A DNA stretch of 64,000 nucleotides from Devosia sp. GTDB taxonomy: Bacteria; Pseudomonadota; Alphaproteobacteria; Rhizobiales; Devosiaceae. The notes below the pieces were generated by a model that had not been told where the DNA came from, searched no databases, and worked only from the letters and a program-made list of their open reading frames with translations. How positions within the stretch are numbered: the first letter of the stretch is position 1; each line of letters starts with the position of its first letter. Below, piece after piece: positions 5,455 to 33,430 of this stretch. Location of the stretch: contig NZ_OZ245853.1 of assembly GCF_965229025.1 (NCBI RefSeq), positions 3,172,277-3,236,276 of the forward strand, read 5' to 3'. Both the position numbers and the translations under genes were made by a program.

Positions 5455-7278
5455 GTGCACAAAGCGATGGCACGGGGCAAGCGCGCGCAGATGAGGCAAT
5501 ATCGGCTATTCGACGTTCCAGAGGAGGGGGCGAGCACCGTGAAGCTTTCTGGCCTTGCCCCGCCGACTGAGCCGCTGATAGCGCCAATGCCGGTGCGCTC
5601 GCGCATGCTGTCGATCGCGACGGTGCTGCTGGTCGCTGCCGTGATCGCCGCCGCGATCTTCGGCTTCGTCAATGTCAGCAGCCAGCAACAGGCGCTGACG
5701 GCGTTGCGCGAACAGGGCCAGGAACTCAGCACGGTCAACCAGGCGCTGGTCGAAGCCGATGCCAACGTCCTTCACTACCTCGCGGGCGAGCCCGGCGCAC
5801 TGCCCGGTTTTTACGCCAATCTCGAATTGCTGCGCAAAGGCCGCGCCGGCTTGATCGGCACGCTCGAAGCGCCTGCAAGCGCCGCCGGCAGCGGTGTGCA
5901 ATCGGTCGGCGCCATCATCGATGGGCTCGATGGCGTCTGGTCCGAAGCGATCCGCCTGACCACGGCCGGCAACAGCGAAGCGGGCCGCGTCCTGCTCTCG
6001 ACCCAGAAGACCGGTGAAGCGGTCTCGGTGGTCGGCGACGCGGTGCAGCGGGTGCTCAACAATGCCGACATCGCGTTCCGCGGCCATGACGAGCGCATCT
6101 GGGTCGGCACGCTGTTTGTCCTGATGCTGCAGGTGATTGGCGGCGGGCTCGCGATCCTCGGGCTCGTCTATGCCTTCCGCTCCAGCGTCTCCGAGGCCGA
6201 TGGCCGCGCTGCAGCTGTCGCCTCCGCCGACGCCTCGCGCGAGCAGGTGGCGCGACTGTTCGAAATGGCGGACGTATTGCAAAGCGCCACCGACCATGCC
6301 GATGCCAATGCGGTACTGAAAGCCACCGCCGCCGAACTCGTCCCCGGCTTTTCCGGCGCGCTCTACGTGTTCAACAATTCGCGCGACCGGCTTGTGCTCT
6401 CGACAGACTGGGAGCGACCGGCCGGTGAGCGCCTGCCCGAAACCATCAGCCCGGCCGATTGCTGGGCGCTGAAGCGCGGCAAGCCGCATCTCAACCAGTC
6501 CGACAGCGGGCGGCTCTGCTGCGCCCACCACGCGCCGGGCGAGACGCTGCTCGAAATCCCGATGATCGCGCGCGGCGAAATCGTCGGGCTGCTGCAATTG
6601 TTTGCCTCGGGCGCCGATGCGGAAGCGCGGCTCGAGGCGGTGACCAATCTCGGCTCTGCGCTCGCCGACGGCATGAGCCTGGCGCTCGCCAACATGGCGC
6701 TGAGGGAAAAGCTCCGCAATCAGGCGCTGCGCGATCCGCTCACCGGCCTCTACAACCGCCGCTACATGGAAGACAGCCTGCAGCGCTTCGTGCGCCTTGC
6801 GGAGCGCGAGAACCGCGAAGTCTCGCTGGTGATGGTCGATCTCGACCACTTCAAGCGCCTCAACGACGAGCACGGCCACGCCTTTGGCGACCAGGTGCTG
6901 CGCGAAAGCGCCCTGGCGCTGGTTTCGGCCCTGCGCGAAACCGATATCGTCTGCCGTTACGGCGGCGAAGAGCTTGTGGTGATCCTCCCCGATTGCCCGA
7001 TCGAACGCGCCGCCGAAAAGGCCGAGGCGCTGCGGCTTCGCATCGAAAGCCTCAGCAGCGCGCATGGTGCCGAGATCACCGCCTCGTTCGGTGTCGCCTC
7101 GATCCCGCACACCTCGAACAACATCACCGACCTCCTCGCCTCCGCAGACGCGGCGCTCTACAAGGCCAAGGAATCCGGCCGCAACTGCGTCGTCACCGCG
7201 CCGCTGAAGCCGTTCCGGCTGGATCGGCCCGCCGAGGACTCAGGGGCAGAAAGCTACCCCCGGGTCGCGGCCGAGTAG
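5455..7278 (+). CDS. membrane-anchored diguanylate cyclase (periplasmic sensor + GAF + GGDEF); start uncertain
   Basis: Two hydrophobic segments, GAF-like region, DPLTGLYNRRY, DLDHFKRLND, RETD I-site and GGEEL. Confidence 0.9.
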   Translation: MHKAMARGKRAQMRQYRLFDVPEEGASTVKLSGLAPPTEPLIAPMPVRSRMLSIATVLLVAAVIAAAIFGFVNVSSQQQALTALREQGQELSTVNQALVEADANVLHYLAGEPGALPGFYANLELLRKGRAGLIGTLEAPASAAGSGVQSVGAIIDGLDGVWSEAIRLTTAGNSEAGRVLLSTQKTGEAVSVVGDAVQRVLNNADIAFRGHDERIWVGTLFVLMLQVIGGGLAILGLVYAFRSSVSEADGRAAAVASADASREQVARLFEMADVLQSATDHADANAVLKATAAELVPGFSGALYVFNNSRDRLVLSTDWERPAGERLPETISPADCWALKRGKPHLNQSDSGRLCCAHHAPGETLLEIPMIARGEIVGLLQLFASGADAEARLEAVTNLGSALADGMSLALANMALREKLRNQALRDPLTGLYNRRYMEDSLQRFVRLAERENREVSLVMVDLDHFKRLNDEHGHAFGDQVLRESALALVSALRETDIVCRYGGEELVVILPDCPIERAAEKAEALRLRIESLSSAHGAEITASFGVASIPHTSNNITDLLASADAALYKAKESGRNCVVTAPLKPFRLDRPAEDSGAESYPRVAAE

Positions 7279-30235: not shown

Positions 30236-31225
30236 ATGGAATATCGCCGCCTCGGCAAGGCTGGCCTGAAGGTCAGCGAATTTTCTTTTGGCGCCTGGGT
30301 CACGTTCGGCAAACAAGTCGGCGAAGACGATGCCGCTTCGATCATGGGCTATGCCTATGACAACGGCATCAACTTCTTCGACAACGCCGAGGGCTATGAA
30401 GCCGGCAATGCCGAAATCGTCATGGGCGAAGCGCTGAAGGCGCTGAAGTGGAGCCGCGACAGCTATGCGGTGTCCTCGAAAGTGTTCTGGGGCGGTTCCA
30501 AGCCGACTCAGAAGGGCCTTTCCGCCAAGCACATCACCGACGCCGCCCACGCGGCGCTGAAGCGCCTCCAGGTCGACTATCTCGATCTCTATTTCTGCCA
30601 CCGCCCGGACGTCGACACCCCGATCGAAGAGACAGTGCGCGCCATGCACAATCTCGTCACGCAGGGGAAGGTCCTCTACTGGGGCACGTCGGAATGGAGC
30701 GCGCAGCAGCTGACTGAGGCTTATGCCATCGCCCGCCAGGAGCACCTGACGCCCCCGACCATGGAGCAGCCCGAATACAACCTGTTCCGCCGCGAAAAGG
30801 TCGAAGCTGAGTTCTCGCCTCTCTATTCTCTGTTCGGCCTTGGCACCACGATCTGGTCGCCCCTCGCCTCGGGCATTCTCACCGGCAAGTATAATGACGG
30901 CGTCCCTGCCGACAGCCGCATGAACCTCCCCGGCTACGAATGGCTCAAGGCCCGCCTCGATAGCGAAAAGGGCAAGGACGAACTTGCCAAGGTCAAAAAG
31001 CTCGCGAAGCTCGCTGACGAGGTCGGCATGCCGATCCACTACCTCGCGCTGCTCTGGTGCAATGCCAACCCGAACGTCTCGACGGTTATCCTCGGCGCCT
31101 CCAAGCTCAGCCAGCTCAAGGACAACCTCAAGGCGCTCGACCACAAGTCGAAGATGACCCCTGAGGTACTCGCCAAGATCGAAGAGATCATGGGCAACAA
31201 GCCGGCCGCACCGCAGCGCTTCTGA
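30236..31225 (+). CDS. aldo/keto reductase (Kv-beta-like)
   Basis: FFDNAEGY, LKRLQVDYLDLYFCHRPD, EQPEYNL, WSPLASG. Confidence 0.93.
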   Translation: MEYRRLGKAGLKVSEFSFGAWVTFGKQVGEDDAASIMGYAYDNGINFFDNAEGYEAGNAEIVMGEALKALKWSRDSYAVSSKVFWGGSKPTQKGLSAKHITDAAHAALKRLQVDYLDLYFCHRPDVDTPIEETVRAMHNLVTQGKVLYWGTSEWSAQQLTEAYAIARQEHLTPPTMEQPEYNLFRREKVEAEFSPLYSLFGLGTTIWSPLASGILTGKYNDGVPADSRMNLPGYEWLKARLDSEKGKDELAKVKKLAKLADEVGMPIHYLALLWCNANPNVSTVILGASKLSQLKDNLKALDHKSKMTPEVLAKIEEIMGNKPAAPQRF

Positions 31226-31251
31226 CCGCTGCTGCATTCACGCGCTCGACG

Positions 31252-31285
31252 AAGGGTCCCCGGAAGCTCCGGGGGCCCTTTTTTT
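31252..31285 (+). terminator. intrinsic terminator
   Basis: AAGGGTCCCCGG-AAGCT-CCGGGGGCCCTT-TTTTT. Confidence 0.85.
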
Positions 31286-31765
31286 GTCTCTCGGGCGCTC
31301 AGCGGGTGCCCGGGAACAGCTCCAGCACAGCTTTTCAGCAGAAGTCTGTGACTTTTCGCCAGTCGAAAGCAGTTATTGCGCGTCCGATGGCGCAATCGGG
31401 ACCGTTTTTAAGGCCTTGGAAACCATAATTCGGGGCCTTTCCATTTTTTAATGCTGATCACAGCCGAGTGTTTTCGCTCCGTTGCAAGCGTCGACTGCAG
31501 CTCTCCCGTGTGACGCTTTCGTGTCGGTTTGCCCCCGAAGCGGGGTCTGGAATCGCCGTCAAAGCCCCGGCTGCCGTACCGTATCCAAAACGAAACCTAC
31601 CCCCTTTTGGGCTACCGACTGGCAGCAAGGCAACCAGCATCCCCCCGCGTAACCCTCTGCATTGATTATATCTTTTCAAGGGCTGGCCGCAAAAATTCAC
31701 CCCCTTGCGGATCGAACCGATCAGTACGATTTCCCTGTTGTCCAACCAACGAAAGGGACTTGGAA

Positions 31766-32113
31766 ATGAAGATCTCAGTTATCGCACTCGCCGCCGTTCT
31801 GCTTGCCGGCCTTGCTGCTCCGACGCTTGCCAATGACGATTCCTCGTTCGACGGCGCCTCGCTCGCAACCGCTCTGCAGCACAAGGGCATCAATGCCGTC
31901 GCCGTCTACGAGAACTCGGACAACATCGTCCGCGCCGTGATCCAGCAGGCCGATGGCACCGACAAGTTTGCCTATTTCTACCAGGACACGCTGCAGCCCG
32001 TGAAGTCCGGCACCGATGCCGCTCAGACGCGCGTTCTCAGCAAGGTCGACAACGGCATCCGTACCCAGCCCGTCGCTGACCAGTATCCCAACGCAGACTT
32101 CTTTTTCGACTGA
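31766..32113 (+). CDS. secreted hypothetical protein, copy 1 (possible PepSY-like fold)
   Basis: Signal peptide ending A-P-T-L-A, RBS GAAAGGGA, 115 aa, ends YPNADFFFD. Confidence 0.85.
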   Translation: MKISVIALAAVLLAGLAAPTLANDDSSFDGASLATALQHKGINAVAVYENSDNIVRAVIQQADGTDKFAYFYQDTLQPVKSGTDAAQTRVLSKVDNGIRTQPVADQYPNADFFFD

Positions 32114-32155
32114 ACCTGACTGACGTCCACTCTGTCCATGAAAGGGACCTCTAAA

Positions 32156-32506
32156 ATGAAACTCTCAGCTTTTGCTCTTGCCGCCGTTCTGCTCGCTGGC
32201 GTGGCCGCCCCGGCTCTCGCCTCCTCGGATGATCCGAAGTTCGACAGCAGCTTCCTGACCACTGCTCTGCAGCAGAAGGGCGTCAACGCCGTCGCCGTCT
32301 ACGAGAACTCGGACAACATCATTCGCGCCGTGATCCAGCAGGCTGATGGCAGCGAAAAGTTCGCCTACTTCTACCAGGACACGCTGCAGCCGGTGAAGTC
32401 CGGTGCTGACGCTGCCCAGACCCGCGTTCTCAGCAAGGTCGACAACGGCATCCGTCACCAGCCGGTCGTCGATCAGTACCCCAACGCCGACTACTTCTTC
32501 GACTGA
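32156..32506 (+). CDS. secreted hypothetical protein, copy 2
   Basis: Paralog of copy 1; RBS GAAAGGGA; 116 aa; ends YPNADYFFD. Confidence 0.85.
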   Translation: MKLSAFALAAVLLAGVAAPALASSDDPKFDSSFLTTALQQKGVNAVAVYENSDNIIRAVIQQADGSEKFAYFYQDTLQPVKSGADAAQTRVLSKVDNGIRHQPVVDQYPNADYFFD

Positions 32507-32547
32507 ACCTGACTGACTTCAACTCTGTCCATGAAAGGGACATCAAA

Positions 32548-32898
32548 ATGAAAATCTCAGCTTTTGCTCTCGCTGGCGTTCTGCTTGCAGGCCTCGCCGT
32601 TCCCGCTCTCGCATCTTCGGATGACCCGAAGTTCGACGGCAACTTCCTGACCACTGCTCTGCAGCACAAGGGCGTCAACGCTGTCGCCGTGTACGAGAAC
32701 TCGGACAATATCGTCCGCGCCGTGATCCAGCAGGCCGATGGCAGCCAGAAGTTCGCTTACTTCTACGAAGATACGCTGCAGCCGGTGAAGTCCGGTGCTG
32801 ACGCTGCCCAGACCCGCGTTCTCAGCAAGGTCGACAACGGCATCCGTCACCAGCCGGTCGTCGATCAGTACCCCAACGCCGACTACTTCTTCGACTAA
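32548..32898 (+). CDS. secreted hypothetical protein, copy 3
   Basis: Paralog; 116 aa; last 41 codons identical to copy 2 at DNA level. Confidence 0.85.
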   Translation: MKISAFALAGVLLAGLAVPALASSDDPKFDGNFLTTALQHKGVNAVAVYENSDNIVRAVIQQADGSQKFAYFYEDTLQPVKSGADAAQTRVLSKVDNGIRHQPVVDQYPNADYFFD

Positions 32899-33037
32899 GC
32901 CAAGCTCCGAACCGGCCGGGTCATCCCCGCCGGTCCGCTAAGAGGCCGAGCCATCCGGCTCGTCCTGTATGGATCGTGGCAGAGAGGCCAGGGCCCTAGT
33001 GGGTCCGACCTCTCCCCGATCAGGCGGGAGTGGCAGT

Positions 33038-33430
33038 TTACTGGCCGCTCGCGCGCAGCAGGACCACCGTCTGCTGCTCATCGAACTGGCGCCGCGCTTC
33101 GATAACACGCGCCCAGTTGCGATCTGCAAACGACTCAAGACCTTCCAGCAGCGTCAGCATTTCGCCGCCGATCTCGGTGAGCTCATAATCCACCCTTGGT
33201 GGAATTGTGGGGAAGCTGGTACGGGTGACGAACCCATCGCGTTCGAGGGCACGCAGAGTGGCGCTCAGCGCCTTCTGCGAGATCGTGCCGATATCGCGCT
33301 GCAATTCGGTGAACCGCATCGTCTCACCACCCAGATGCAGCACTACCGAGGCGGTCCACTTGCTGTTGCGATGCGAAAACAGCTCTTCAATGGCCGCATA
33401 GTTGGGCGGCGTGGCGCGCGCTTTTGGCAT
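33038..33430 (-). CDS. HxlR-family winged-helix regulator
   Basis: KW...V...L, RFTELQR, ISQKALSATLRALERDG, PPRVDYELT..G. Confidence 0.9.
   Translation of the reverse strand: MPKARATPPNYAAIEELFSHRNSKWTASVVLHLGGETMRFTELQRDIGTISQKALSATLRALERDGFVTRTSFPTIPPRVDYELTEIGGEMLTLLEGLESFADRNWARVIEARRQFDEQQTVVLLRASGQ

Follow-up and report, generated by a model that had tools for sequence, protein, structure and literature searches.

A lineage-specific tandem triplication of a divergent PepSY_2-type gene in a Devosia genome

Layout and authenticity of the gene array

A stretch of 64,000 nucleotides of a Devosia sp. genome (assembly GCF_965229025.1, contig NZ_OZ245853.1, positions 3,172,277–3,236,276), hereafter the window, contains an array of three genes encoding small secreted proteins. 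The three open reading frames (ORFs) are arranged head-to-tail on the + strand and are located at positions 31766–32113 (copy 1, 115 aa), 32156–32506 (copy 2, 116 aa) and 32548–32898 (copy 3, 116 aa). In copy 1, a predicted signal peptide (residues 1–22) is followed by a PepSY_2-like core (approximately residues 29–82) and a tail (residues 83–115). The same ribosome-binding site (RBS), GAAAGGGA, precedes each ORF. It has three exact occurrences in the window (31751–31758, 32140–32147 and 32533–32540, + strand), each 7–8 nt 5′ of a start codon, and the motif is kept in the orthologues. The two spacers on the + strand (32114–32155, 42 nt, and 32507–32547, 41 nt) are near-identical; no hairpin was apparent in the first one when it was checked by eye.

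Copies 1 and 2, 1 and 3, and 2 and 3 are 82.3, 81.2 and 91.7% identical at the DNA level, respectively, which is far above chance. Copies 2 and 3 differ at ten residues, namely four in the signal peptide and six in the mature protein (31, 32, 40, 56, 67 and 74). They share a tract of 124 identical nucleotides on the + strand, located at 32381–32504 in copy 2 and at 32773–32896 in copy 3, and the bases flanking both of its ends differ between the two copies. Copy 1 ends in YPNADFFFD, whereas copies 2 and 3 both end in YPNADYFFD. The original prediction for this locus had listed the secreted-protein ORFs, the common RBS, the similar spacers, the shared tract and the C-termini, and all of these statements were confirmed.

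Copy 2 has an additional in-frame ATG at 32138, 18 nt upstream of the start given above and within the RBS (CATGAAAGGGAC), which has been taken as the start by gene callers (the database protein P0005 begins MKGTSKMKLS). This ATG is out of frame in copy 3 and missing in copy 1, and therefore 32156 is likely the true start of copy 2. Two metagenome-derived relatives, P0006 and P0011, have a copy-2-like start followed by unrelated sequence (MKGHQNETLSFSPQF... in P0011) and resemble frameshifts or chimeric assemblies over the repeat rather than true variants.

Such an array could in principle be an artefact of misassembly or a recent neutral duplication heading to decay. Short-read assemblies do fragment or leave gaps at repeats of this kind, as shown by a 100-N gap in the Devosia metagenome-assembled genome (MAG) L005, and frameshifted variants such as P0006 and P0011 exist in the databases. 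However, the sequencing run X1 holds 95–100% of the 31-mers of the region, and its short-read unitigs span both junctions without mismatches (32033–32317 and 32475–32739). Their depth is approximately 7–9 in the copy-specific parts versus 18–28 where two or three copies share sequence, so it scales 1x, 2x and 3x with sharing. Unitigs from two unrelated metagenomes (X2 and X3) also span junctions, and spacer 2 is crossed in all three datasets. Moreover, an independent metagenome contig from JGI (L013, 115 kb) carries an array of 115, 116 and 116 aa in a matching neighbourhood. The array is genuine and is not an assembly artefact; the junction-spanning unitigs, the read depth and the L013 array all agree with the real amplification claimed originally.

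Family, fold and orthologous genes

The signal peptide of each copy begins with M-K-x-S, continues with a 15-residue hydrophobic core (mean Kyte–Doolittle value 2.25–2.51 for the three copies) and ends with T/A-L-A before the predicted cleavage site. The proteins lack cysteine and therefore are not lipoproteins, and they lack an RR pair and therefore are not Tat substrates. Judging by these features, the proteins can be regarded as Sec-exported. The mature proteins, of about 10 kDa, are acidic (13 Asp and Glu versus 7–8 Lys and Arg; pI 4.4–4.7) and contain no cysteine and one or two histidine residues.

A word-indexed homology search returned 15 relatives, all of them unnamed. An exhaustive HMMER search with a profile of these 15 sequences against 1.84 billion proteins (E ≤ 1e-3) revealed 142 representative proteins, many of which are only 79–95 aa long and align to profile positions 2–80 only. 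The PepSY_2 model (PF13670) was matched by 27 of the 102 relatives that were scanned (best E 7e-8), and five of these passed its gathering threshold of 24.3 bits. The proteins retrieved by the family profile in the exhaustive search include P0078 (E 4e-9) and P0091 (E 7e-8), both of which are above that threshold. Comparison of the window family (alignment A3) with the PF13670-positive proteins (alignment A5) using hhalign gave a probability of 99.5% and an E-value of 1.2e-22 over residues 1–82. The cluster that passes the PF13670 threshold is named "PepSY domain-containing protein" at NCBI. In the relatives, the alignment with the Pfam model starts in the signal peptide and extends as far as the last strand, and the 35-residue tail lies outside the model. 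The window proteins consist of a signal peptide and a single domain, as do small secreted PepSY_2 proteins.

Sequence searches of Pfam, NCBIfam and PDB with the three proteins returned only noise, the classical PepSY model (PF03413) matched none of the window proteins, and the closer long-form relatives either missed the PF13670 threshold or gave sub-threshold scores. A profile of the 102 relatives matched signal peptides in PDB and nothing else, and a literature search retrieved nothing on the long-form subfamily. On the strength of the profile comparisons, the family is assigned to a divergent branch of PepSY_2 (PF13670).

Structure modeling was performed with copy 3 as the query. The AlphaFold 2 (AF2) model, based on the alignment of 102 sequences, predicts residues ~30–80 with a per-residue confidence (pLDDT) of ~95. 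The predicted core consists of one helix (31–40) packed on a three-stranded beta-meander (45–50, 55–61 and 67–73). Mean pLDDT is ~68 over residues 21–30 and 60–72 per ten-residue block in the tail (81–116). Together with the hhalign result, the core supports the PepSY-like fold of a helix and a beta-meander that had been proposed. In the Foldseek search, the top geometric fits in PDB for the predicted core in both models were the PepSY proteins YpmB and UipA, although no match was significant; both proteins are discussed below.

The window contains, as neighbours of the array, genes encoding NusA, RimP, an ApbA-type reductase, an aldo/keto reductase, HxlR, TrmB, MetK, Lnt and a beta-lactamase-family protein. 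In Devosia and other Devosiaceae, the corresponding slot is bounded by the rimP-nusA-infB operon on one side and by the convergent hxlR-trmB-metK block on the other. As to copy number and range, for which a profile search had been suggested, the gene is single-copy in 11 other Devosia and Devosiaceae genomes and in L014, and it is triplicated in L013. In most single-copy loci, it lies 3′ of the aldo/keto reductase gene or of rimP-nusA and is convergent with hxlR-trmB-metK-lnt. In further Devosia species (L019–L024, gene position 6001–6267 or 6001–6240), the slot is filled by a single gene encoding 79–88 aa.

These short genes are represented by WP_157955791.1 (88 aa, "PepSY domain-containing protein") and WP_286721560.1 (79 aa, "hypothetical protein"). 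The 88-aa form is PF13670-positive and its cluster reaches the Pfam cut-off, which is missed by the 79-aa protein (for which no PF13670 match is recorded) and by the window proteins. The short forms occupy the same slot as the window genes and share with them the type of signal peptide, a similar promoter and RBS architecture and the core FD...L..kGvnA..V.....RA.V...dG......TL.PV. Unlike the window copies, they are single-copy, lack the TRVLSKxDxG tail and stop directly behind the final beta strand. By position and sequence, then, the window genes are positional orthologues of short single-copy PepSY_2-type genes, one cluster of which passes the PF13670 threshold. This does not bear out the earlier view of the proteins as uncharacterised and as the best candidate in the window for an undescribed system. 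We know of no short PepSY_2 form of Devosia with an experimentally established function.

The long forms (114–121 aa) have about 35 extra residues, which include a nearly invariant T-R-V-L-S/T-x-x-D-x-G motif and mostly an acidic end that is often aromatic as well (D-x-F-F-D). This tail (residues 83–116) is found only in a subclade. It ends in SLLxDxFFD in most Devosia and in DQYPNAD(F/Y)FFD in the clade of the window, and its motif is kept in 34 distinct sequences. A tail-only profile had no match in PDB, and three-frame translation of the DNA 3′ of the short genes revealed no remnant of the tail. Since short and long genes occupy one slot across Devosia, the 35-residue tail was gained or lost within the genus. 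It is the only part of the protein without a known counterpart.

The convergent HxlR gene was also considered as a functional partner of the array, and this was rejected. The pairing is genus-wide, yet it is indistinguishable from plain synteny, because hxlR ends the metK-trmB block.

Duplication, expression and possible function

In a neighbour-joining tree, the three window copies (W1–W3) and the three copies of the sister strain represented by L013 (J1–J3) form a group that is sister to the single-copy clade P0003/P0004. Within this group, copy 1 is the earliest to branch, and the other two copies group by position and not by genome. The nucleotide identities between positional orthologues are 94.2% (W1–J1), 94.0% (W2–J2) and 89.7% (W3–J3). 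Since the copies pair by position across strains, both duplications predate the strain split. According to the tree topology, the two duplications occurred once the lineage had diverged from a single-copy relative (71% identical) but had not yet separated from the sister strain. The earlier one gave rise to copy 1 and to the common ancestor of the other two copies, and the later one to copies 2 and 3.

The 124-nt segment does not follow this pattern: it has no differences between W2 and W3, compared with 7 between W2 and J2, 10 between W3 and J3, and 14 between J2 and J3. A permutation test over 99 variable sites gave P = 0.00085 for the tract, in line with the gene conversion suspected earlier, and the tract results from one recent conversion event, in which these 3′-terminal 124 nt were copied from one of the two genes to the other. 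Because of this tract, copy 3 is nearer to copy 2 (91.7%) than to its own orthologue (89.7%). Of the concerted evolution originally proposed, only this one tract stands, since copy 1 is not homogenised and the copies, with the exception of copy 3, are nearer to their positional orthologues. Ongoing concerted evolution of all three copies was accordingly rejected, given that positional orthology is preserved and copy 1 remains at ~82% identity. A homogenised targeting tail, also part of that proposal, finds no support either: the tail is kept by purifying selection across the subfamily, and the tails of copies 2 and 3 in the sister strain differ at the 14 positions mentioned above.

The dN/dS test pointed to purifying selection on all copies, with values of 0.10–0.14 between orthologues (0.10 for copy 1 versus J1). 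Between paralogues, dS is 0.28–0.79 and dN/dS is ~0.1–0.16, and no copy has lost its reading frame, signal peptide or RBS. The high dS, low dN/dS and intact frames mean that the copies are old and maintained. Taken with the junction-spanning unitigs and the L013 array, this makes an artefact or neutral redundancy extremely improbable. Positive selection on the N-terminal patch was rejected, as there are too few sites and dN/dS reaches 0.89 at most, on four changes. The variable N-terminal face that had been read from this patch (residues 23–35, modeled with moderate confidence) is thus not upheld.

Amplification was also found elsewhere. In the MAG L005, a distant paralogue (46% identical) is present at 756–1353 as two or more copies in tandem, which are non-syntenic with the window array and lie beside a gene for a ROK-family regulator. 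The 100-N gap is located within the first copy, and its flanks equal the second copy. This locus is an independent amplification collapsed by the assembler, and amplification therefore recurs in the family.

Codon usage in the array is the most biased in the window, which bears out the high-expression codons noted earlier. Alanine is encoded by GCT in 26–53% of cases in the array genes versus at most 22% in each of the 42 other genes of the window. The codons GCG, CGG and GGG are absent from the array (background 33%, 22% and 16%), as is CAA, and TAC accounts for 86% of tyrosine codons versus 47% elsewhere. Two other genes of the window, pnp and infB, are biased in the same direction but less strongly. 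Among the matches listed, 31-mers of the array were found in 21 RNA runs, compared with 10 for the aldo/keto reductase gene and 3 for metK, in a semi-quantitative comparison of equal 1133-nt queries.

Transcription was also seen in several metatranscriptomes, as the original prediction would have it. Four of them (freshwater twice, permafrost and wood decay) yielded full-length contigs with 0–5 mismatches on copies 1 and 2 and spacer 1, and the 12-kb flanks had almost no such contigs, their matches being mostly short fragments of universally conserved genes. Spacer 1 is crossed by the RNA-derived contigs X18 (32109–32259) and X25 (31987–32137), which suggests that copies 1 and 2 are co-transcribed; spacer 2 is crossed by DNA unitigs only. 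Codon usage and the metatranscriptome matches together indicate high expression.

The array consists of tandem paralogues of one ancestral, divergent PepSY_2-type gene in a fixed chromosomal slot. The explanation that we favour, and consider fairly probable, is that their product is an abundant stoichiometric binder of the periplasm amplified for dosage. The protein would be periplasmic, or possibly released, and would work stoichiometrically, with the PepSY-like core as its binding module; the tail might be a short linear motif that docks either on a partner in the envelope or on a further subunit. The tandem copies would increase the dosage, and no catalytic role is expected. High abundance and a rise in copy number are easier to reconcile with a stoichiometric than with a regulatory role, and the former could be binding of an envelope partner, self-assembly or ion buffering.

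Several points weigh against this explanation. None of the three copies matched PF13670 even at E ≤ 10, and Foldseek gave no significant match for either model (best E 0.07–0.5), which is to be expected because the domain has only about 50 residues. The repeats of the array inflate its 31-mer sharing relative to the reductase and metK controls, and metatranscriptome contigs measure expression poorly and may contain DNA. The grounds for a stoichiometric binder are the abundance signals and the copy number and nothing further, and the tail was modeled at low to moderate confidence in both models, which makes docking conjectural.

Small secreted PepSY-domain proteins are widespread, and to our knowledge a function is established for hardly any of them; the small number investigated so far are sensor kinase regulators or metal binders. 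No gene for a kinase, response regulator, peptidase or metal-homeostasis protein was found within four genes of the array, and the same holds for the annotated orthologous loci. The absence of such neighbours weakens both DbfQ-type and propeptide-type models.

In the first of these, the target of a window protein would be a histidine kinase whose gene lies elsewhere in the genome; by binding to its periplasmic sensor domain, the protein would set the balance between its kinase and phosphatase activities. DbfQ of Vibrio cholerae is a small Sec-exported protein with a single PepSY domain that binds DbfS directly, neighbourhoods combining PepSY and two-component system (TCS) genes are enriched more than 60-fold, and the small PepSY proteins of Pseudomonas aeruginosa probably act likewise on BqsS (PMC12714742). 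The window proteins match this architecture in being small, secreted and single-domain, and PA2658 and PA2659 of P. aeruginosa, as two adjacent paralogues, add a tandem likeness (PMC12714742), the resemblance being one of architecture. However, the genes of DbfQ and PA2658/PA2659 are located in or beside a TCS operon and their products act on the sensor kinase, whereas the window genes have no such neighbour, and a regulator has no obvious need for three copies with extreme high-expression codons. A DbfQ-like modulator is therefore considered unlikely.

The structural match to UipA and the acidity of the mature proteins bring up a periplasmic metal binder or buffer, like UipA (uranyl and iron) or lanpepsy (LanP, lanthanides), in which the acidic core and tail would chelate cations and amplification would raise the capacity. 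UipA (PDB 7ath) and lanpepsy are extracytoplasmic acidic PepSY proteins like those of the window, PepSY metal binders are documented in PMC9988556 and through the citation of UipA in PMC12714742, and high abundance would suit a buffer. On the other hand, both are demonstrated metal binders that are built differently: UipA carries a membrane anchor in addition to its PepSY domains, and in lanpepsy there are two such domains, while the window proteins combine a cleavable signal peptide with a single domain and lack an anchor. The window proteins have no cluster of histidine or cysteine residues and no recognisable metal-binding loop, no metal-regulator boxes were recognisable by eye, there are no metal-homeostasis genes nearby, and the match to UipA is not significant (E 0.2–0.8). 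This makes a metal-binding role quite unlikely.

In geometric terms, the predicted core is matched best by YpmB of Bacillus subtilis (PDB 2gu3; rmsd 2.9–3.0 A over 57–58 columns, Foldseek probability 0.87–0.98, 10–12% identity, E 0.18–0.48). It recalls the classical role of PepSY domains, in which they inhibit or chaperone a peptidase or a hydrolase of the cell wall, either secreted or periplasmic, as put forward for M4 propeptides and YpeB–SleB; this was the original functional proposal for the domain (Yeats et al. 2004, as cited in PMC12714742; a YpeB–SleB preprint). Unlike the window proteins, YpmB is a Gram-positive protein with two PepSY-like repeats, a membrane anchor and MreC as its partner (PDB entry 9a5z). 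As neither the window nor the annotated orthologous loci contain an adjacent peptidase or hydrolase gene and the window proteins do not match PF03413, this role is very unlikely.

The abundant stoichiometric binder thus remains the favoured explanation. A bolder extension of it, which we regard as doubtful, is that the long-form subfamily (PepSY_2 core with the TRVLSKxDxG ... SLLxDxFFD tail) would be an undescribed class of very abundant Devosiaceae periplasmic proteins. Its tail would dock on an envelope machine or self-assemble, and its dosage would have been raised repeatedly by tandem amplification (in the window and L013, and independently in L005). If this were true, the amplified class could be tied to a host-associated or cobiont lifestyle and to the loss of an upstream operator arm, described below.

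The locus itself is a lineage-specific amplification of a divergent PepSY_2 gene; it is neither a multi-component system nor an undescribed one. One branch of the family is already annotated as PepSY in related species, and a single conversion tract and a lineage-specific amplification are ordinary genome evolution, which leaves the long-form tail and the recurrent amplification as the only new elements. However, one slot offers a natural series of a short form, a tailed long form and a triplicated long form. This series, with its signs of high expression, is a handy entry point to the function of orphan PepSY_2 proteins and to recognition of the tail.

Flanking DNA and neighbouring genes

A putative sigma-70-type promoter was located upstream of copy 1 on the + strand at 31704–31732, consisting of CTTGCG (31704–31709), a 17-nt spacer and CGATTT (31727–31732). 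It resembles the alphaproteobacterial consensus CTTGAC-N17-CTATAT. A generic scan for E. coli-type promoters found nothing here, and the assignment is drawn from cross-species conservation: CTTG(C/T)G-N16-17-C(G/A)AT(C/T)T is kept at nearly all orthologous loci. When the 160 nt that precede each of 15 orthologous genes were aligned, further conserved blocks, GTAACCCTCTGCA ... TTTTCAAGG, became apparent at 31646–31700 (+ strand). Similar blocks are present 5′ of the short-form orthologues, and conservation in BLASTN extends back to 31562–31637.

In the single-copy orthologues L001–L003, L006 and L010, an inverted repeat, TCTGCA(C/T)-N29-(G/A)TGCAGA, is centred on AATTTCAAG just 5′ of the -35 box. 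It shows one compensatory change, namely C:G in L001–L003 and T:A in L006 and L010. In both triplicated strains, that of the window and that of L013, the arm nearer to the promoter is degenerate (GCAAAAATTC), which could represent a lost operator.

Between the array and the convergent HxlR gene, three GC-rich hairpins (32911–32934, 32943–32966 and 32972–33021) occupy positions 32911–33021. The fold of 32890–33040 has a free energy of -77.8 kcal/mol (z = -4.0), and none of 200 shuffled sequences was as stable. This is a probable bidirectional terminator region, which was missed by a simple terminator scan because it has no U-tract. An SD-sequestering leader hairpin was also considered and rejected, its stability being no better than that of shuffled sequences (z = +1.2).

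An Rfam scan of 31000–33300 gave only sub-threshold matches, all of them at the hairpin that serves as terminator of the reductase gene upstream. The 485-nt gap between this terminator and copy 1 contains two terminator-like hairpins (31383–31400 and 31410–31439). The window at 31383–31460 and the non-syntenic L005 at 415–442 have a common 28-nt stretch, GGCCTTTCCrTTTTTTAATGCTGrTCA, which in each case lies approximately 310 nt 5′ of the gene. This stretch may encode a small RNA or act as a regulatory element at a distance; neither RNA contigs nor an Rfam match were found there.

A ferredoxin-reductase-like gene (PF00175, NAD_binding_1) is divergent from the PepSY_2 gene in L014 (3819–5519) and in L019 and L020 (5092–5757), and in relatives it is sometimes accompanied by a gene for a MerR regulator or a GAF-GGDEF protein. 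In the window, the aldo/keto reductase gene takes this position, and therefore the upstream neighbour is variable. A PIN_10/DUF5615 and DUF433 pair resembling a toxin–antitoxin system lies between trmB and metK in L019–L021 (7495–8057) and is absent from the window.

The study to which run X1 belongs deals with a coded organism A and also includes a 210-Gb Hi-C library, and several of the RNA runs with matching words are from other coded organisms (D–G). A large eukaryote sequencing project appears to have yielded the Devosia genome, with the bacterium present as cobiont or contaminant.

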